A stretch of 64,000 nt of DNA. It comes from an uncultured Eubacteriales bacterium (GTDB taxonomy: Bacteria > Bacillota > Clostridia > TANB77 > UBA1234). The notes beneath the pieces were generated by a model that was not told where the DNA came from, did no database searches, and worked only from the letters and a program-made list of their open reading frames with translations. Below, piece after piece: positions 41,940-54,650 of the stretch; positions within the stretch are counted from its first letter, which is position 1; every line of letters begins with the position of its first letter. The translations under genes were made by a program, and so were the position numbers. The DNA is taken from the NCBI GenBank assembly GCA_959598745.1, contig CAUGFN010000001.1:3713-67712 (forward strand). Reading direction: 5' to 3'.

Positions 41940-44669
41940 ATGGGTTTTTTAAGTAAACTTTTTAAAAGTTATAGTGAGAAAGAAATTAATAAAATAAGAC
42001 ATTACGTAGATGACATAAATAAATTAGAACCAGAGATGGAGAAATTATCAGATGCAGAGCTAAGAGCAAAAACAGATGAATTCAAAAGCAGACTTGCAAA
42101 TGGGCAAACACTAAATGATATTTTAGTTGAAGCATATGCGGTTGCAAGAGAAGGCTCAAAGAGAGTATTTGGCAAAAGACCTTTTGATGTTCAATTAATG
42201 GGTGCAATAATTTTGCATCAAGGAAGAATAGCAGAAATGAAAACAGGTGAAGGAAAAACATTAACAGCTTCACTAGCATTGTATTTAAATGCGTTAGAGG
42301 GAAAAGGTGCACACTTAGTTACAGTAAATGATTACTTAGCTAGAACACAAGGAGAAGAAATGGGAAAACTATATAATTTCCTTGGTTTGAGCGTAGGACT
42401 TATATTACATGATTTATCTCCAGAAGATAGAAAAGCTGCATATGCTGCAGATATAACATATGGAACAAATAATGAATTTGGTTTCGATTATTTAAGAGAC
42501 AATATGGTTATACAAAAAAATCAAATGGTTCAAAGAGAGTTAAATTATGCGATTGTCGATGAGATAGATAGTATTTTAATTGATGAAGCTCGTACACCGC
42601 TTATTATTTCAGGACCATCAGATAAAGCTAATGAATTATATAAAACAGCGGATAAATTTGTAAAGGGCTTGAAAGCTAAAGTAATAACTAAAGACGATAA
42701 TAAAGAAGAAGAATCTGAAGAGGATATGCAATATGACTATATTGTAGATTTGAAAACAAGAAGAGCTACATTAACAAGTACTGGTACAAGGAAGGCTGAG
42801 AAATATTTCGGCGTTGAAAACTTATCAGATTTGGATAATATGACACTACTTCACCATATAAATAAAGCATTAGCTGCAAATGGTGTAATGAAGAAAGATG
42901 TAGATTACATTGTTAAAGATGGAGAAGTTTTAATAGTTGACGAGCATACAGGAAGAATAATGTATGGAAGAAGATATAGCGAAGGATTACACCAAGCTAT
43001 AGAAGCTAAAGAAAACGTAAAAGTTGCAAATGAAAATAAAACACTTGCAACAATCACTTTCCAAAATTACTTCAAGCTATACAATAAGCTTTGTGGTATG
43101 ACAGGTACAGCCCTTACAGAAGAAGAGGAATTTAGAGAAATATATGGCCTAGATGTTGTAGAAATTCCAACTAACAGACCTATGATAAGAGATGATAAAA
43201 ACGACTTAGTATATAGAACTAGAAGAGCAAAACTTCGTGAAGTTGTAAAGGATATTAGAGCTAGTAATGAAAAAGGACAACCAGTGCTAGTTGGTACTAC
43301 AAATATAGAAAAATCTGAAGAACTAAGTGATATGCTAAAAAAAGAAGGAATAAAGCATGAAGTGTTGAATGCTAAATATCACGAGAAAGAAGCTGAAATT
43401 GTTGCCCAAGCAGGTAAGTTTGGTGCTGTTACAATAGCTACAAACATGGCAGGTAGAGGTACAGATATAATGCTTGGTGGTAATACAGAAGCACTTGCAA
43501 AACATGAACTGAAAAAACGTGGATATACAGAAGATGTTATCATGAATGCCATAAGTTTAAATGAGACAGATGATGAAGATATTTTAGCAGTTAGAAAAGA
43601 GTATAAAGAAATATATGATAAGCTAGATAAAAACGTAAAAGAAGACAGAGAAAAAGTAATAAATGCAGGTGGTTTAAAAATCATAGGTACTGAAAGACAC
43701 GATTCAAGAAGAATAGATAATCAGCTTAGAGGACGTAGTGGTCGTCAAGGTGATGTTGGTGAATCAAGATTTTATATTTCACTTGAAGATGATTTGATGA
43801 AATTATTTGGTGGTGAAAGAATACAAACACTTGCAAGTGCTATGAATATGCCGGAAGATATGCCACTTGAAATGGGAATGCTTACTAGTGCAATACAAAG
43901 AGCTCAAAAGAATATTGAATCTATACATTATCAAGCTAGAAAGAATGTCCTTCAATATGACAATATAATGAATGAACAAAGACATATAATTTATGATGAG
44001 AGAAGAAAAGTATTAGAAGGTGAAAACTTAAGAGACAACATAATGAATATGTTGAAGAGAACTGTTGAGGAAGTTGTTGACTCATACTTTAATGTTTATG
44101 ATAGTTCAACAATAAATACAGAAGCTTTTGAAAATTACTTAGAAACAACATTTACAGTAGAATACAAAGTTGGAGAAGAAAGAGATCCAGAAGTAATAAA
44201 AGAGAAAGTATTAGAATTAGCTAAAGAAAAATATGAAGAAAAAGAAAAAGAACTTGGCGATAGAGTAAGAGAATTAGAAAGAATTGTAGTTTTAAGAACT
44301 GTTGATGAAAAATGGATTGATTATCTAGATGCAATGGAACAATTAAAGGAAAGCGTAAGATTACAAGGATATGCACAAAAGGATCCAGTTGTAGAATTCC
44401 AAAGAGAGAGCTATGATTACTTTAATGAAATGACATCAAGTATAGACGAAACTGTTGTGAAAACGATGTTGCATTTAGTACCAAGAGAAAAAGTAGAAAG
44501 AGTAAACCTAATTAGAAACATGGTAATGAACATGCAAGCCGCACAACAAGCTGGTGGTCCAGAAAAACCACAACCAAAAACAAATAAATCAGAAAAAGTA
44601 GGAAGAAATGACCCTTGTCCATGTGGAAGTGGAAAGAAATACAAGCAATGCTGTGGTAAAAACGCATAA
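41940..44669 (+). CDS. secA: Preprotein translocase ATPase SecA
   Basis: 909 aa; DEAD motor domains; C-terminal zinc-binding CPCGSGKKYKQCCG. Confidence 0.96.
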   Translation: MGFLSKLFKSYSEKEINKIRHYVDDINKLEPEMEKLSDAELRAKTDEFKSRLANGQTLNDILVEAYAVAREGSKRVFGKRPFDVQLMGAIILHQGRIAEMKTGEGKTLTASLALYLNALEGKGAHLVTVNDYLARTQGEEMGKLYNFLGLSVGLILHDLSPEDRKAAYAADITYGTNNEFGFDYLRDNMVIQKNQMVQRELNYAIVDEIDSILIDEARTPLIISGPSDKANELYKTADKFVKGLKAKVITKDDNKEEESEEDMQYDYIVDLKTRRATLTSTGTRKAEKYFGVENLSDLDNMTLLHHINKALAANGVMKKDVDYIVKDGEVLIVDEHTGRIMYGRRYSEGLHQAIEAKENVKVANENKTLATITFQNYFKLYNKLCGMTGTALTEEEEFREIYGLDVVEIPTNRPMIRDDKNDLVYRTRRAKLREVVKDIRASNEKGQPVLVGTTNIEKSEELSDMLKKEGIKHEVLNAKYHEKEAEIVAQAGKFGAVTIATNMAGRGTDIMLGGNTEALAKHELKKRGYTEDVIMNAISLNETDDEDILAVRKEYKEIYDKLDKNVKEDREKVINAGGLKIIGTERHDSRRIDNQLRGRSGRQGDVGESRFYISLEDDLMKLFGGERIQTLASAMNMPEDMPLEMGMLTSAIQRAQKNIESIHYQARKNVLQYDNIMNEQRHIIYDERRKVLEGENLRDNIMNMLKRTVEEVVDSYFNVYDSSTINTEAFENYLETTFTVEYKVGEERDPEVIKEKVLELAKEKYEEKEKELGDRVRELERIVVLRTVDEKWIDYLDAMEQLKESVRLQGYAQKDPVVEFQRESYDYFNEMTSSIDETVVKTMLHLVPREKVERVNLIRNMVMNMQAAQQAGGPEKPQPKTNKSEKVGRNDPCPCGSGKKYKQCCGKNA

Positions 44670-44895
44670 TAGAGCCATTTGTTAAAATTAAATAATCAAA
44701 AATTAGTAGTAAAATTGATATTTGTCCACCCAAAATCAATCGATGTGGTTGTTACTAGATAAATAAAAATGTGGACAAAATCAATTGAAATTAAAGGATG
44801 TCAGCGAAATAAAATTTGTTGACATCCTTTTTAACAAACATATAGGAAGTTAATACTTATAATATAAAATATATTTAAATTTAGGAGAAACAGGC

Positions 44896-45921
44896 ATGGA
44901 TAATAAATTGATTGGAAATGAGAAAAATATTTTATTTTATAGCGATGAAGAAGGGAATACAAAGGTAGAAGTATTATTAGAAAACGAAGATGTATGGCTA
45001 AATACGGATGCATTAGCATCACTTTTTAATATTGATAGAAGTGGAATTGTAAGACATATTAACAATATTTATAAAGATGAAGAATTAAACGAAAATGTAA
45101 CTTGTGCAAAAATTGCACAAGTTCAAATAGAAGGAACTCGTGAAGTTAAAAGAATTTATCCATACTACAATTTGGATATGATTATTTCAATAGGTTTTAG
45201 GGTTAACTCTAAGAAAGCGATTAAATTTAGAACTTGGGCAAATAAAATAATTAAAGATTATATGGTTCAAGGTTTCGCCTTGAATGACGAAAGATTTTTA
45301 AAAGCCCAGAAATTTGATCAAGAGTATTTTAAAAGATTACTTGAAAGAATTAAATTAATTCGTACAAGTGAGAGAATGTTTTATCAAAAAATTACTGATA
45401 TATTTGCTGAATGTTCTGTTGATTATGATAAAAATAGTGATACTGCAATAACTTTTTATAAAACTATTCAAAACAAATTTCATTATGCAATTACAGGAAA
45501 AACTGCTGCTGAAATAGTTTATAGCAGAGTAGATTCTAAAAAAGAACATATGGGCCTTACTGCCTGGGAAAACTCACCTAATGGAAAAATTTTAAAATCT
45601 GATGTAATTATTGCTAAGAATTATTTAAATGAAAAAGAAATTAAAAATTTGAATAATTTAGTAAACTTATTTTTGGATATTGCCGAAAATAATGCAGAAA
45701 GAAATATAACTATGTATATGGAGGATTGGAAAAATGAAGTAGAAAATGCTTTGAAAGTTTTTCATTATGAAGTTATAGAAGGAAAAGGAAAGATTTCACA
45801 TAAACAAGCAGTCGAAAAAGCGGAAAATGAATATGAAAAATATAAAGTTATACAGGATAAAAATTATGTATCAGATTTTGATAGACTGTTAAGCGAAACA
45901 AAGCAAATTGAAAATAAATAA
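44896..45921 (+). CDS. RhuM-family (virulence-associated) protein
   Basis: Recalled family signature across the length of the 341-aa product. Inserted between secA and prfB. Confidence 0.7.
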   Translation: MDNKLIGNEKNILFYSDEEGNTKVEVLLENEDVWLNTDALASLFNIDRSGIVRHINNIYKDEELNENVTCAKIAQVQIEGTREVKRIYPYYNLDMIISIGFRVNSKKAIKFRTWANKIIKDYMVQGFALNDERFLKAQKFDQEYFKRLLERIKLIRTSERMFYQKITDIFAECSVDYDKNSDTAITFYKTIQNKFHYAITGKTAAEIVYSRVDSKKEHMGLTAWENSPNGKILKSDVIIAKNYLNEKEIKNLNNLVNLFLDIAENNAERNITMYMEDWKNEVENALKVFHYEVIEGKGKISHKQAVEKAENEYEKYKVIQDKNYVSDFDRLLSETKQIENK

Positions 45922-46039
45922 ATTGTACATGTATAAAAATCGAAAAAATATTGACTTTTTATGTCGACATGATATAATATCCAACGTAAACGATAAGTTT
46001 ATAAAATATAAAAAAACTTTTTTATAGGAGGACTTCACA

Positions 46040-46399
46040 ATGATTGAAGTTACTTTTTTACGTTTGGACTGGCTTAAAGGCAGACACCTTTGGAAGAATG
46101 AAATCGATAACGTTGCTATTCCAGAAAACGCAGTTGAGACAAAAGACGGAAATGGATACTCTTTACCAGCAGAATTGAATTTAACTGTTAAGGAAACAAA
46201 TGGTTCTGCTGTGTACACATGGGACATATATGAGTTCGTAAAAGAGGTAAATGGCTGGGAACGGTTATCAACACCACGGTTTACTGCTTTACAAGAGGCT
46301 TTCAGACGGCAAAGAACCTTAAAGTTAGATGAGGATATTCCAACTTGGTCTTATTATTCACTGGTAGGGCTAAAAGAAATAGTCGAGAGTTGCAAGTAG
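46040..46399 (+). CDS. GC-richer ORFan (119 aa)
   Basis: Own promoter TTGACT-16-TGaTATAAT (about 45953-45983), GGAGGA RBS, hairpin terminator at 46405-46450. No family recognised. Confidence 0.4.
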   Translation: MIEVTFLRLDWLKGRHLWKNEIDNVAIPENAVETKDGNGYSLPAELNLTVKETNGSAVYTWDIYEFVKEVNGWERLSTPRFTALQEAFRRQRTLKLDEDIPTWSYYSLVGLKEIVESCK

Positions 46400-46544
46400 T
46401 CAAACCCTAATATAAAAAGCATGATATAGAGAGATTTCTCTACATCATGCTTTTTATGTTTTGATAGATGAATAATATATGAGATTGCAACATTTGGTAA
46501 TTTGTAATATAATAAATAAACAATATTTAGAAGGATGTGATTTA

Positions 46545-47649
46545 ATGCTAGAGTTAGAAGAAGCAAATCTAACACTTAAAGAATATGAGAAAAAGCTAAA
46601 TGAATTAAGGGATTCTCTTTGACATCGATGGCAAGAAAAATAAAATCGTCGAACTAGAAGAAAAAACAAAAGACAACGATTTTTGGCAAGATACGGAAAA
46701 ATCAACTAAGGTATTACAAGAAATAAAAACATTAAAAAACAGCGTAACGAAATTTGAAGATATATATAATATGCTTTCTGATACAATGGTTCTTATCGAA
46801 CTTGGCAATGAAGCAAATGACGAGAGTGTTGTTCCAGAAGTAAAAGGCAATGTGAAGAAATTATCTAAAAAAATAGATAATCTAGAAGTTGAAAGTTTAC
46901 TTTCTGGTAAACATGATAAGGATAATGCAATAATTACAATTCATCCAGGTGCAGGAGGAACTGAATCACAAGATTGGGCAGAAATGCTTTATAGAATGTA
47001 TTCTATGTGGGCTGAAAAAAACGATTACAAGTTAGAAGAACTTGATTATTTAGAAGGTGATGGTGCAGGTTTAAAAAGTGTTACTTTTAGTGTTTCAGGT
47101 GAAAATAGCTATGGTTATTTAAAAGGCGAAAGTGGCGTACATAGATTAGTAAGAATTTCTCCTTTTGATTCTGCAGGTAGAAGACATACATCTTTTGCAT
47201 CAGTCGAGGTAATACCTGAGATTTCAGATGATGTAGAAGTTATAATAAATCCTGAGGATTTAAGAGTAGATACTTATCGTTCAAGTGGGGCTGGTGGACA
47301 GCACGTAAATAAAACAGAATCTGCAATAAGAATAACTCATATACCAACAAATATAGTTGTTTCTTGTCAGACTCAACGTTCACAAATACAAAACAGAGAA
47401 ACAGCAATGAAGATGTTAAAATCTAAACTTTTAGAATTAAAAGAGAGAGAAAATAAAGAAAAGATAGAAGATTTAAAGGGTGTTCAAAGAGAAATTGCTT
47501 GGGGAAGCCAAATTCGTTCATACGTATTTTGCCCATATACAATGGTAAAAGATCATAGAACAAATTATGAAACAGGAAATGTAGAAGCTGTTATGAATGG
47601 TGAAATAAATGAATTTATAAATGCTTATTTGAAATCTCTAATAAAGTAA
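46545..47649 (+). CDS. prfB: Peptide chain release factor 2 with programmed +1 ribosomal frameshift
   Basis: ORF0 MLELEEANLTLKEYEKKLNELRDSL ends at the classic CTT TGA C slippery site (46617-46623), preceded by an SD-like AGGGA. The downstream frame continues as RF2 with GGQHVNKTESAIRITHIPT. Confidence 0.9.
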
Positions 47650-47861
47650 AATGTTTTTTATATTTGTGATAATGATAAGCATAAACTTTTTGCAAAGAAA
47701 CAATACATGAAACTAAAAATAATAATTATAAAAATGTTTTAATCAAAAGTAAACACTTCTTGCTATAAATTTTAGCAAGGGGTGTTTATATTTTTATGTA
47801 ACATGGAATAAAAATAGAAGACACATACCAAACTAACAATCGGTACGTGCCTTCTACATAA

Positions 47862-47933
47862 CTACTTCCATACTGCCTCCTCTATGATTATTAATACACC
47901 AATCAAGTATACAACCACGGCATCTAAAACCAT
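47862..47933 (-). CDS. Speculative 23-aa hydrophobic peptide ORF (MVLDAVVVYLIGVLIIIEEAVWK) in the polC upstream region
   Basis: Minus-strand ATG preceded by AGGAG about 12 nt upstream (GTG 3 nt further upstream gives 8-nt spacing). Lies in a GC-rich patch of an otherwise ORF-free 750-nt intergenic region. Resembles type-I toxin-like small membrane peptides, but is very short. Confidence 0.2.
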   Translation of the reverse strand: MVLDAVVVYLIGVLIIIEEAVWK

Positions 47934-48401
47934 CACCGGAATTTTCTCCTAGGTAAGATTACCAATAAATCGATATCTGTGAGGATACGCTCATCAGTAT
48001 CAGGTAAGATATACCTTATGTATGTATTTCTATTATTGTAGCATACTTAACATAAAAAATCAACTAATTTTTAACACTATTCAAATTTATATATGTTCGA
48101 GTAAAAAGAATTTCATTTTTTAAGGCGAGTTCTTCGCTTAGCAATATGTGATGTTCTTAGCATAAAGCTTTTTCTTTTGAAGTCTTATGTCTTGCTCATG
48201 CTAAAGAACATCCATAGTGCTTGGCGAAGCTGTTTGAGATCTAAAAAATGAAAACTTTTTGCGAAGATAAAATATATAAATTTGAATAGCATCAATACTA
48301 AATATTGCCCTAAAAATATTTGTCGTTTTTTCAAATTTTTACCTTTGTATATTCTGATTATTGTGGTAATATTTATATGGACTATTTTTTGGAGGACTTA
48401 A

Positions 48402-51400
48402 ATGATGGATAATAATGAAGTTAATTGGGGAGAAGTAATTGATTTCTTCTCTAAAAAATATATATCACTTAGAGCAATGCTTATGGGTAGTGAAATTAGT
48501 GTCGAAAACGATAATATAAATGTTATGCTTAAATCGAAAGGTAAATTTATGTTGGAGCAAAAAAATGCTAACAAAACTATTAGTGAATTTTTGCATAATA
48601 CAACAGGCAAAACATATAGCGTTGCTTTTCTTGAACCTGATAAAATTGAGCAATGTGAAAACAAAGAAGAAACTATTATAAAAAATATTTTGGCAGAGAA
48701 TGCAAAACTTGCTGAAGAACATGCAAAGAATCCACCTAAAGAGGCAAAGCAAGATATACCAAATATGAAGATGGGTTTTGCACCTAAGCAAAATTCGGAT
48801 AATGCAAAGCCAAATTTCGTGCCACAACAAAATTGGAACAATAATCAAAATGCAGAAAATCAGGGAGAAAAGAGAGCTCCTAGAAAGCGTTCAATGGCAT
48901 ATATAGAAAATGAGGAAAATCTTATTTACAAAGGCTATAGAGACACAAAAGATCCAAAGGATGTTAAGATAATAAATCTATCGCCAGAGCAACCGGGGGT
49001 AATTATAAAAGGTAAGATTAGTAATTATGATAGCAGAGAAACGAAAAATGGTGGTTTCTTAATATCTTTTGATATCTATGATGGTACTAGTTCTATAAAT
49101 GTCAAAGCCTTTTTGAAAGCTAATGAATTTTCTGAGGTTAATCCTAAAATGAAATCTGTTAAAGCTGTTAGACTTGTTGGAACATATGAGTATAATACTT
49201 TTTCAAAAGAGTTTGGCGTTATAGCAGATTCGCTTGAAGAGACAACGATTGAAGAGCACATTAGAATGGATAATTCAGAAGAGAAACGTGTTGAGCTTCA
49301 TATGCATACGCAAATGAGCACAATGGACGGAATGACTTCTGCAACTGACCTTATTAAAAGGGCGATTAAATGGGGACATAAGGCAATTGCAGTTACGGAC
49401 CATGGTGTTGTGCAAGCATTTCCAGAGGCTAAAAAAGCTGCAAAAGATTCAGATATTAAAATCATTTATGGCGTTGAGGCATACTTAGTACCTGATAGGA
49501 TTACTTCGGTAAACAACGGTAAAAATCAAAATATAGATGACATTGTTTATTCTGTACTAGATATTGAAACAACAGGACTTTCAAAGCAAACAGAGAAAAT
49601 AACAGAGTTTGGTATCATGAAGGTAAAGAATGGTGAAGTTATTGATACTTTTGAATGTTTTGTAAATCCTGAAAAGCCAATACCACCAAGAGTTGTAGAG
49701 GTAACTAATATCACAGATGACATGGTAAAAGATGCCGAAACAATTGATAAAGTTTTGCCGAGAGTATTAGAGTTTGTTGGCGATTCTGTAATTGTTGCGC
49801 ATAATGCTGATTTTGATGTTGGATTTATAAAGTATAATGCAGAAAAATTGGGATTAGAGTTTGACAATACATATATTGATACACTTGCACTTGCAAAAGA
49901 ATTGTTTCCCAATTTTAAAAAGTATAAATTGGGAATTATAGCTGAGAATTTAAATATAGAAGTTGATGTTGCACATAGAGCGCTAGCTGATGTTGATACA
50001 CTTGTAAAAGTTTTTAATGTGATGCTTAAAATGCTTGCTGAAAAAGAAATACATACATTAAACGAAGTCGATGATAAATTATCAGAAGGCATAAATTTTA
50101 AAACTTTGCCATCCTATCATGCGATAATACTTGCAACCAATAAAGCTGGTCTTAAAAATTTGTATAAGTTAATATCAATATCTCATTTAGACTATTTTTA
50201 TAAAAAGCCTAAAATACTAAAAAGCATATACAAGCAATATTCAGAAGGCTTAATAATTGGTAGTGCGTGCGAGCAAGGAGAACTATATAGAGCAATTGTT
50301 GAAGATAAACCTGAAGAAGAAATTGAATCAATTGCAGATTTTTATGATTATCTAGAAATTCAGCCTTTAGGTAATAATATGTTTATGGTTAGAAATGGCA
50401 CTGTTACAGGTGTTGATGTTTTAAAAGATTTTAATAAGAGAATTGTAGATTTAGCGGATAAACAAGGAAAGCCATGTGTTGCAACATGTGATGTGCATTT
50501 TATGGATCCCGAAGATGAAATATATAGAAGAATTTTGCAAGCTGGACAAGGTTACGAAGATGCAGATGAGCAACCACCTTTGTATTTGAGAACAACAGAA
50601 GAAATGCTAAAGGAATTTGATTATTTAGGTGAAGAAAAAGCCTATGAAGTTGTTGTTACAAATACAAATAAAGTTGCAGATATGTGCGAAAAAATTAGTC
50701 CAATAGCCGACTACAAAGCTACTCCTCACATTGATGGATGTGAAGACATGATTAGAAATATAACAATGAAAAGAGCAGTAGAATTGTATGGAGATCCACT
50801 TCCAGAGATAGTAAAAGCAAGAATAGATAAAGAACTTGAATCTATTATAAAAAATGGTTTTTCCGTTATGTATATTATTGCGCAGAAGCTAGTTGCTAAA
50901 TCAAATGAAGATGGATACTTGGTTGGTTCAAGAGGTAGTGTTGGTTCATCATTTGTTGCTAACATGACAGGAATAACAGAAGTTAATTCACTTCCGCCAC
51001 ATTATAGATGTCCAAAGTGTAAGTATTCAGATTTCACTGACTATGGAATAAAAAATGGATTCGATTTACCAGATAAAATTTGTCCAAATTGTGGCGAAAA
51101 ATTAGCTAAAGATGGTATGGATATCCCGTTTGAAACATTCTTGGGATTTGATGGAGATAAAGAGCCTGATATAGACCTTAACTTCTCTGGTGAATATCAA
51201 GCGAAAGCACATAGGTACACAGAGGTTATATTCGGTAAAGGAACAACATTTAAAGCAGGAACAATAGGCACAATAGCGGATAAAACAGCATTTGGATACG
51301 TTAAAAAATATTATGAAGAGAGACATATACCAGTTAATAATGCAGAAATAACAAGACTAGCATTAGGTTGTACAGGTGTTAAGAGAACAACAGGACAGCA

Positions 51401-53630: not shown

Positions 53631-53688
53631 TATAAAAAACAAGTGGTCAAATAGGCCACTTGTTTTTTATATAGAATTGGGCAATGGC

Positions 53689-54060
53689 TCAAGTGCTATA
53701 AGGGTACAATCTGTTTAAAAGCAAGTCGATTTCTCTAACAAGCTTTTCTTTGTCATAAGTTGAAAAGTCAGATTCTAAGATAGACTGTACCATATTTAAA
53801 TACTTTTTGCTGGCTTCCTCATAGAGATTTTCACGGCTTTTAAGATAATGTGCAAATCTTTTGGTAAAGGTAACATCAACATCGTTACGACCGAAAAGCA
53901 TGTTCGTCAATCGATCTTTGTTGCTTTGAAAAGGCTCATAAATTTTGTATTGCCAATTAAATGGGTAATCCAAGAGGCAAGATTGTAAATCGATGACATC
54001 AATTGTGCCGTCTTCATTTACGTTAGGCATATCAATAGTATATGATAAGAAAGTTGCCAT
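53689..54060 (-). CDS. Hypothetical protein (123 aa)
   Basis: ORF only. Confidence 0.35.
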   Translation of the reverse strand: MATFLSYTIDMPNVNEDGTIDVIDLQSCLLDYPFNWQYKIYEPFQSNKDRLTNMLFGRNDVDVTFTKRFAHYLKSRENLYEEASKKYLNMVQSILESDFSTYDKEKLVREIDLLLNRLYPYST

Positions 54061-54269
54061 GGTATAAGCCCTCCTAAGAAAAATAAAATTACAACTACAT
54101 ATTATAATATTTATTTTACAAGTGCAATAGTAAATGCGAAAAGTTTAGATTTTATGATTTAAAAGTATTTGTATGCAAAAGTATTCTTTGAGAAAATAAT
54201 ATATAAAAAGGTCCACTGCAACAGAGGACCTTTTTATTACTCAAAGTGTCATTTTACAAAATAACAAAA

Positions 54270-54650
54270 TTATTTTGCAAAATCGTATGGATGGCGCTGG
54301 TGAATTTCTTCGTTGATGATTGCGAGGAGTGTGGATTTGCAATTAAGATTGCTATCCTTAATTGCCTTGATGGTTCCGAGAAGTTCGGCATACTCTTCAG
54401 TCTGGCAAATTGCTTCGCGGTCGCTCAAGTAGTCAAGTAACTTCTTGTCTATAGTGTACGAAACTCTATCGTGTCCATAAACAAGCAATTCTAGAGCTCT
54501 TACATTCTCCTTCGGAGAACAAGTGAAGTTGTATCTCCATTCATGGGCGTCTTCAGACCAACAGGAATTTTCGTCAGCCACCCTCATTGTTGCATTTCTT
54601 CCATCCTTAACCATTACAATGGTTCGCTTTAAATTTGCCAACATAGACAA
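54270..54650 (-). CDS. GC-richer ORFan (126 aa), minus strand
   Basis: AGGAGG-N8-ATG on the minus strand; promoter TTGATT-17-TATAAT; bidirectional terminator at about 54205-54235. Roughly 42% GC. Confidence 0.4.
   Translation of the reverse strand: MSMLANLKRTIVMVKDGRNATMRVADENSCWSEDAHEWRYNFTCSPKENVRALELLVYGHDRVSYTIDKKLLDYLSDREAICQTEEYAELLGTIKAIKDSNLNCKSTLLAIINEEIHQRHPYDFAK

Follow-up and report, generated by a model that had tools for sequence, protein, structure and literature searches.

In the stretch of DNA analysed here, 64,000 nucleotides of a contig from an uncultured Eubacteriales bacterium (assembly GCA_959598745.1, contig CAUGFN010000001.1, positions 3,713 to 67,712; hereafter the window), the genes secA and prfB are separated by a gene of the RhuM family and by a smaller gene for a 119-aa protein, which lie on the same strand and 118 nt apart. 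The initial annotation had described the two as a single accessory insertion in a gene pair that is usually adjacent, and had pointed to an inverted repeat and a hairpin terminator at the secA-proximal junction. The subject of this study is the nature and origin of that insertion. All of the features were found where they had been reported (Table 1), including the promoter and terminator of the 119-aa gene, and this gene is indeed richer in guanine plus cytosine than its neighbours (0.39, against 0.25-0.27 for the RhuM gene). The spacer between secA and the RhuM gene measures 226 bp and contains both the repeat and the hairpin. As had also been noted, the 64-kb window holds no integrase of a relevant family.

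Table 1. Features between secA and prfB, in window coordinates
Feature	Position	Strand	Remarks
secA, 909 aa	41940-44669	+	gene upstream of the insertion
Final ~50 nt of secA, encoding the SEC-C zinc-finger tail (CGSGKKYKQCCGKNA*)	44620-44669	+	duplicated at element ends in relatives
Element-derived leader (module), holding the inverted repeat and the hairpin	44670-44835	+	absent in the RhuM-less strain L011
Inverted repeat, left arm AATTGATATTTGTCCAC	44713-44729	+	proposed integrase-binding motif TTTGTCCAC
Partial direct copy of the outer half of the repeat, CAAAATCAATCGA	44731-44743	+	92% identical to 44776-44788
Inverted repeat, right arm GTGGACAAAATCAATT (GTGGACAAAATCAATTG)	44771-44787	+	pairs with the left arm
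Hairpin, 16-bp stem and T run	44793-44832	+	presumed intrinsic terminator for secA, supplied by the element
RhuM-family gene, intact, 341 aa, cassette cargo	44896-45921	+	PF13310 and PDC-S05 matches
Cassette right junction	45922-45947	+	cassette similarity stops at 45939-45947; similarity to the RhuM-less chromosome from 45929
Promoter of the 119-aa gene, TTGACT-16-TGnTATAAT	45951-45978	+	11/12 consensus, with TG extended -10
119-aa gene (the former ORFan)	46040-46399	+	outside the RhuM cassette; unnamed protein family
Terminator hairpin of the 119-aa gene	46409-46460	+	24-nt arms, 92% complementary, then Ts
prfB (release factor 2), conserved right flank	46545-47649	+	programmed +1 frameshift site CTT TGA C at 46617-46623

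The boundaries of the insertion are given by another strain of this uncultured gut Clostridia species, 'Clostridiales bacterium UBA4698' (L011; loci from other genomes are denoted by L and a number), whose DNA is ~96-97% identical to the window along 20 kb and whose secA, prfB and polC products share 99%, 100% and 98% protein identity, respectively, with those of the window. This strain lacks the RhuM gene and all of 44670 to ~45928, and retains the 119-aa gene. It departs from the window at the first base past the secA stop codon, carries in place of the insertion ~110 bp with a different terminator, and rejoins the window at ~45929, a short distance before the -35 box of the 119-aa promoter. 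Therefore, the variable unit comprises the repeat, the hairpin and the RhuM gene, with the 119-aa gene outside it, and the description of both genes as one insertion has to be given up. The polymorphism between presence and absence is sharp and falls at the end of the target gene, as in the case of a site-specific integrative element with a 3'-end target. The alignment of secA-prfB regions from related strains, which had been proposed as a check, thus defined the boundaries of the insertion. No target-site duplication was found in the window: comparison of the secA tail with the downstream 10 kb gave no direct repeat of at least 11 nt around the cassette beyond chance.

What occupies this slot varies among strains of the species. 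The RhuM gene is present at 96-100% identity in L001-L008, L010 and L098, whereas it is missing from L011 and replaced in L009, L012, L115 and L099/L131, in agreement with its proposed accessory status. Among these, L012 has a modified secA tail with an integrase gene immediately behind it, L115 has the same leader (with an additional copy of TATTTGCCCAC) followed by different DNA, L099 and L131 have another gene with its own terminator, and L009 has a locus that looks like a phase-variable surface-protein locus. In the latter (L009:1-7900, upstream of the 119-aa gene), an XerC-like integrase adjoins a ~200-bp segment with inverted ends (1025-1238), and leucine-rich-repeat, CUB and 1244-aa Ig-like/SLH surface proteins are encoded. 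In L012, as in L013 and L014 (secA 99%, 93% and 76% identical to that of the window, respectively), the secA tail is replaced by CCGK* plus CCCATAAAATAAGG. The integrase-bearing tail is 98% identical between L012 and L014, and has therefore been transferred recently. The RhuM gene with its leader is thus a genuine accessory insertion, smaller than first proposed and of a familiar kind.

The inverted repeat pair and the third, partial copy between its arms were both recovered as first described. The arms pair over 16 bp with one bulged A and lie 58 nt apart, both at the secA end, and the prfB end of the insertion holds nothing comparable to them, so that the genes are not 'flanked by inverted repeats', as had been stated. 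The 8-mers TTGTCCAC and GTGGACAA occur once each in the 64 kb, 50 nt apart, and a search for the repeat elsewhere in the window gave nothing beyond chance. The stem of the hairpin (44793-44830) runs into a tract of Ts, in accordance with the terminator originally proposed at this junction; a simple terminator scan misses it because the T run lies partly inside the stem.

A wider comparison covered 80 species-representative loci found with secA. In 15 of these, prfB lies within 700 bp of secA, and in a further 16 the two genes are 0.7-10 kb apart, which bears out the view that the pair can be directly adjacent and is split here. At 24 loci at least 3 kb downstream of secA is available without prfB, at seven loci 1-3 kb, and at 18 loci the contig ends less than 1 kb from secA. 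A tyrosine integrase gene lies less than 1 kb from secA in nine of the 80 loci. Integrase genes stand directly after secA, behind equivalent leaders made of repeats and a hairpin, in L012, L014, L034, L038, L041, L044, L047, L052 and L054; their products match the Pfam families Phage_integrase and SAM_3, and that of L054 has a borderline match to Arm-DNA-bind_4 (22.1 bits, against a cut-off of 22.3). Between the secA stop codon and the integrase gene there is a short, locus-specific motif in direct and inverted repeats, followed by a hairpin. The motif is TTGTCAAC in L044 and L034, TTGTTGGC in L041, and TTGTTTGC in L054, L015 and L016, while L047 has three copies of TTTGTCCAC and three GTGGACA motifs. 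The spacer in the window shares this architecture and carries the motif of L047. Short repeated motifs, as putative recombinase-binding sites beside the attachment site, are present in the window and shared with the integrase-bearing loci.

Two of the loci in this slot deserve separate mention. In L054 (12960-18880), secA is followed by two tyrosine integrase genes with genes for an AAA_25 protein, a Mob_Pre relaxase and an HTH_17 excisionase-like protein between them, which suggests two accreted mobilizable elements. In L017 (12743-13676), a ~0.9-kb cassette encoding a 129-aa PBECR2 nuclease-like protein lies between two identical 37-nt direct copies of the secA terminator; this cassette sits in the same slot, has no module, and represents a different kind of insertion.

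The leader found in the window travels between genomes. The segment 44759-44834 is 91% identical to the DNA that follows secA immediately in Clostridium sp. CAG:571 (L024), where secA itself is only 61% identical and where the module is followed by a protein kinase gene, not by a RhuM gene; it is 93% identical to the corresponding segments of L128 and L116. The 3' part of the RhuM gene is likewise 90-95% identical in genomes whose secA is only ~59-61% identical. Such high identity of the module and the RhuM gene in genomes with a distant secA points to a horizontal origin. When metagenomes were scanned with a 20-nt query from the hairpin flank, 24 loci were returned, 22 of them real, and each of these 22 has the module behind secA itself or behind a separate ~50-nt copy of the secA tail. 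The right arm of the repeat is kept in these 22 loci as AATGTG(G/A)AC(G/A)AAAT. A scan of viral contigs for the module gave no match.

The copies of the tail without the rest of secA (L128, L113, L130, L110, L109, L116, L119, L124 and L108) begin with C(A/T)TGTGG, and ahead of most of them lies a conserved, AT-rich right-end sequence that in most cases ends in GGGAGCATCCACT. Several contigs contain two or three tail copies, 0.8-5 kb apart, in an order that repeats itself: the module, one variable gene, an integrase gene, sometimes further cargo, and the next tail copy. In L128, L113, L130 and L110, the units are flanked by attL/attR-like repeats of the secA 3' end. The arrays consist of small integrative elements in tandem, with copies of the secA 3' end as their boundaries, and from the same duplication the final ~50 nt of secA in the window are presumed to be the attB or core region. 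The cargo behind the module includes a gene pair of a cyclic-oligonucleotide-based antiphage signalling system (CBASS), a Stk2/PD-T4-6-like kinase gene, a NucC-like nuclease gene, RhuM/PDC-S05 genes and several genes whose products have no match. The CBASS pair of L110 (3805-5227) is complete and stands as second cargo (cyclase, E=3e-125; effector with two transmembrane segments, E=2e-70). In L130 (5950-6400), the module is followed by an open reading frame (ORF) of 92 aa that resembles an IS200/IS605-type transposase, identified by eye from the N-terminal sequence only, and there is no cargo gene.

The unit of most direct bearing on the window is found in L128 (6240-7073), where a RhuM unit without an integrase, complete with leader, hairpin and promoter, lies between two secA-tail copies and fits the definition of a cis-mobilizable element (CIME). 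Its RhuM gene is internally deleted, and the 3' part is 92% identical to that of the window in DNA and 95% in protein. Beyond the RhuM gene this cassette continues with a right arm, GTGGACAATGTCCACAAGAAGTCCAC with GTGGACA/TGTCCAC motifs, and a copy of the secA 3' end, whereas the window lacks both. A similar RhuM remnant lies ~150 nt before a tail copy in L109.

The integrase genes of the secA-site elements show a peculiarity of their own. They are split into two ORFs at a conserved run of eight As (TTAAAAAAAACA), where a -1 shift restores the full frame. The split was seen in L110 (2925-3010) and at the same site in L113, L117, L120, L122, L128, L130 and L038, and as eight independent contigs share it, the split would reflect programmed slippage or phase variation more probably than random decay.

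These comparisons also bear on what the inverted repeat is. One explanation is that it acts as RNA, that is, as a stem-loop in the 3' untranslated region of secA that makes the mRNA more stable or gives rise to a small RNA. It sits between the secA stop codon and the terminator and should therefore be transcribed, and the folding of the junction is very stable (-44 kcal/mol, z = -6.7 to -7.1, none of 200 shuffles being equally stable). However, the junction (44670-44895 included) matches no Rfam family, either at the gathering threshold applied to the whole window or at E<=1 applied to 44600-48450, where only chance hairpin matches at the terminator of the 119-aa gene appeared. Moreover, the RhuM-less strain L011 manages without the repeat, and the long upstream stem is not kept as a structure across homologous modules: the arms do not pair in L024, and it is the motif and the terminator hairpin that are kept, the latter being the one conserved structure, with a hairpin of different sequence at the equivalent position in L024, L030, L038 and L044. 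As the motif is conserved and the stem is not, binding by a protein is favoured over an RNA structure, and we regard a function as RNA as unlikely. A reading of the bulged stem as an integron attC-like site was considered and dropped on account of the non-conservation of the stem across modules. That the repeat is a miniature inverted-repeat transposable element (MITE), as the initial annotation had offered, or the scar of one, is very improbable; although its arms of 16-17 nt look terminal, they flank nothing, there is one copy in 64 kb, no target-site duplication surrounds it, and the 22 real matches elsewhere all lie at secA tails instead of being dispersed.

Another suggestion of the initial annotation was that the dyad is an operator, which in its most specific form would be bound by the N-terminal DNA-binding region of RhuM, or by another repressor, and would control the RhuM gene. 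In favour of this, the dyad is a near-perfect one of 16 bp upstream of the gene, weak HTH_11 and Bro-N-like signals were detected in residues 23-117 of RhuM (E=0.02-0.05, both below their cut-offs), and the RhuM gene of L030 is likewise preceded by a dyad, though a different one. Nevertheless, the dyad is placed ahead of a strong terminator hairpin and not over a promoter, the module at 91-93% identity precedes genes for a kinase, a nuclease and unrelated proteins in place of RhuM, and equivalent clusters of motifs precede integrase genes. It is thus improbable that the repeat serves as an operator, and the suggestion made alongside it, that the repeat is a remnant of an integration site, is the better supported of the two, as the same motif and hairpin lie between secA and tyrosine integrase genes or other cargo in many relatives.

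Taken together, we consider it probable that the stretch from 44670 to ~45928 is a stranded cassette, derived from a family of small site-specific integrative elements of gut Clostridia whose attachment site is the 3' end of secA. When complete, such an element consists of a copy of the secA tail, a leader with TTTGTCCAC-like motifs in direct and inverted orientation, the terminator hairpin, one cargo gene of the defence type, usually a tyrosine integrase gene whose product has an arm-type N-terminal domain, the right arm, and the next copy of the secA tail. The copy in the window has kept the leader and an intact RhuM gene, while the integrase gene, the right arm and the right-hand tail copy are missing. 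Since similarity to other cassettes ends at 45939-45947 and similarity to the chromosome begins at 45929, the right arm and the right tail copy have been lost here. Without these parts and the integrase, the cassette would no longer be able to excise, and it would now vary between strains by homologous recombination in the flanks or by new integrations only. In this scheme, the dyad would represent two sites of the former attL arm to which the integrase (or an excisionase) binds, and the hairpin would be a secA terminator brought by the element, ending secA transcription and insulating the cargo.

Several points weigh against this interpretation. With no integrase, no right arm and no repeat of at least 11 nt in the window, the origin from an element is drawn from homology elsewhere and not from the structure of the window itself, and the comparison sequences are nearly all metagenome assemblies, in which breaks or chimeras could distort the arrays. 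The repeat is a putative protein-binding site, and excision or circular forms have been observed for none of the elements. In addition, the assignment of the motifs to arm-type rather than core-type sites is complicated by the dyads of L030 and L038, which have spacers of 6-7 bp like those of core sites, and by the resemblance of the repeat motif to TTGTCCATGTGGA of secA itself. Finally, there is no clear sigma-70 promoter for the RhuM gene between the hairpin and its start codon.

The cargo gene of the stranded cassette can be assigned to its family. Its product matches Pfam PF13310 at E=1e-101 (339.9 bits, cut-off 33.7) over profile positions 2-250 of 252, and the PADLOC model for PDC-S05 (PDLC04851) at E=5.3e-135, with residues 1-338 aligned to positions 1-337 of 342; it therefore belongs to the RhuM/PDC-S05 family by a full-domain match above the curated threshold. 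In L030, a RhuM protein with 47% identity is encoded directly behind its own dyad and hairpin leader after secA. A sequence search of solved structures found no relative of RhuM. A single PDC-S05 gene introduced into E. coli B reportedly cut the plating of T7 and T5 ~1000-fold and that of T4 ~10-fold (bioRxiv 10.1101/2024.09.26.614923), and an earlier comparative study proposed that RhuM, frequently as a fusion with DOC/Fic domains, serves as a toxin domain in neighbourhoods of restriction-modification and defence genes (PMC3710099). The RhuM gene in the window is most likely a single-gene anti-phage defence of the toxin type, an activity that is predicted for this copy.

The 119-aa gene has a different history. 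It lies outside the cassette, and its own promoter, which is kept in L011, L009, L098, L099, L131 and L132, and its own terminator predict that it is transcribed independently. It had been called an ORFan, a label that no longer applies. Although the protein has no match in Pfam, PHROG or PADLOC, exhaustive HMMER and profile searches (E<=1e-3 with the profile) placed it in a family of ~57 clusters, mostly of 105-127 aa, with W11, K13, P28, P43, L46, W73 and R80 invariant. Large repetitive proteins that matched the query (P0012, P0014, P0016, P0019 and P0025) were set aside as spurious Ig/cadherin-repeat matches. The AlphaFold model of the protein is confident, with a predicted local distance difference test score (pLDDT) of 91.4; it gave no significant structural match in the PDB or BFVD, and a sequence search of solved structures with the family returned nothing meaningful. 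Among the closer homologues, those in L091-L094 have chromosomal genes on one side and, on the other, a conjugation module (TraG/VirD4 coupling protein, TrbC and TrbL), and those in L095-L097 adjoin a Mob_Pre relaxase gene and a serine recombinase gene in two different chromosomal settings. Distant family members stand alone among housekeeping genes or beside a Fic gene. Our best guess for the 119-aa gene is an accessory gene left behind by a mobile element, with an anti-defence or regulatory role as one possibility.

Within the species, the 119-aa gene exists as two alleles that differ only in codons 1-85. In this part, synonymous divergence (dS) is 1.2-1.9 and nonsynonymous divergence (dN) 0.21-0.23 (dN/dS 0.11-0.19), while the remaining codons have a dS of ~0.1-0.15, a dN of 0.013-0.026 and a dN/dS of 0.09-0.27; for secA, prfB and polC, the corresponding values are 0.14-0.24, 0.001-0.007 and 0.007-0.030. 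The gene is therefore real and constrained, with an old dimorphism that was probably kept or imported by recombination. Diversifying selection was ruled out by the same values, as dN/dS of 0.11-0.19 with a saturated dS of 1.2-1.9 indicates old alleles and not fast adaptive change. Contigs with the second allele end ~120-140 nt upstream of the small gene, which is the edge of the slot. The alleles assort independently of the slot content: the RhuM gene occurs with allele A and with allele B (window and L098), the RhuM-less L011 has allele B, and L009 has allele A with other cargo.

This independence also speaks to whether the RhuM and 119-aa proteins form one two-gene module, be it a toxin with an antitoxin or immunity protein or a sensor with an effector, that was inserted as a whole. 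The two genes are adjacent on the same strand, no RhuM copy without the small gene was seen in this species, and a distant member of the small family lies 176 nt upstream of a Fic/HTH_24 gene in L105 (7001-8552), a neighbourhood of some note given the frequent fusion of RhuM to DOC/Fic domains (PMC3710099). However, the small gene has its own promoter and terminator, occurs without RhuM in L011, L009 and L099/L131, and combines in either allelic form with the RhuM gene. A profile search found no member of its family at other secA loci, nor near the RhuM gene of L030 or the cassettes of L128 and L109, and PADLOC treats PDC-S05 as a single-gene system. Neither the obligate co-occurrence nor the co-transcription that marks a toxin-antitoxin pair was found, and a joint module is quite improbable.

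Further strain-variable or unusual DNA lies downstream of the locus. At 48077-48289, ~110 bp upstream of polC, a 171-bp segment between 21-nt inverted repeats (95% complementary) is reversed in L011 with both flanks collinear, and looks like an invertible DNA switch. Between prfB and polC, the segment 47780-48050 is GC-richer with negative GC skew, contains no ORF, has no Rfam match at E<=1, and may represent a minus-strand non-coding RNA. A second strain-variable patch, at 53667-54389, lies downstream of polC and a DUF1294 gene; the identity to L011 collapses there, and in L006 and L007 a gene for 224-231 aa replaces a 175-aa ribosome-hibernation-factor gene.

If the stranded-cassette interpretation is right, the split secA-prfB pair and its dyad are explained as the footprint of site-specific integration, and no new regulatory device is needed. 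More tentatively, and with somewhat less confidence than we would need to prefer it, a broader picture may be drawn, in which minimal and as yet undescribed tyrosine-integrase elements of 0.8-5 kb dock at the zinc-finger tail of secA, stack in tandem and shuffle defence cassettes as a platform with a loose likeness to integrons or tycheposons, the RhuM gene of the window being a cassette that lost its right end and was then fixed; the A8 frameshift may serve to throttle their integrases. The findings also point to the secA tail as a site of recurrent docking, where phylogenetically distant, uncultured gut Clostridia swap anti-phage genes. In the literature searched, there was no relevant report of the secA tail as an attachment site, and the wider docking pattern may be undescribed. 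The slot could be used to mine new defence genes, as several cargo proteins belong to no known family, and elements at this site would account for the many assemblies of these organisms that stop immediately past secA. In addition, one 'ORFan' is removed, as the 119-aa protein now has a place in a small family that is confidently folded and structurally unmatched.

The resemblance of the locus to known systems differs from one component to the next. The context of the RhuM gene fits the association of its family with defence loci (PMC3710099) and the one assay in which phage protection was reported (bioRxiv 10.1101/2024.09.26.614923). The copy in the window stands alone, outside a restriction-modification operon, and is not fused to DOC. 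In attachment sites of the lambda type, arm-type sites for the integrase lie in the P and P' arms. The motifs at the secA site, as putative binding sites, are similar in being short, present in both orientations, within less than ~150 bp of the crossover region and beside an integrase with a borderline Arm-DNA-bind_4 match, but differ in that they resemble the secA core sequence itself.

At the level of the whole slot, the P2/P4 hot spots of E. coli and the tycheposon arrays of Prochlorococcus are examples of defence islands or integration hot spots. Like these, the secA site is a fixed position between core genes at which strain-variable anti-phage genes arrive on integrase-bearing elements and accumulate in tandem. 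The secA-site elements, however, occupy another host clade and another target gene, and are minimal, without structural genes of phages or satellites. The integrative and mobilizable elements (IMEs) and CIMEs of Firmicutes, such as ICESt1 with its CIME and the streptococcal IMEs, have the 3' ends of housekeeping genes as their insertion sites and accumulate there in tandem. The secA-site elements share with them a tyrosine integrase gene beside the attachment site, a target gene whose 3' end the element rebuilds, direct repeats of this 3' end on either side of each unit, and tandem arrays in which some units lack an integrase; the Mob_Pre relaxase and HTH_17 excisionase-like protein of L054 add to the likeness. 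The copy in the window falls outside the CIME definition because its attR and right arm are missing. What sets the secA-site elements apart from these systems is their target, the SEC-C tail, their very small size of 0.8-5 kb, and the single defence gene that they typically carry behind a conserved leader.

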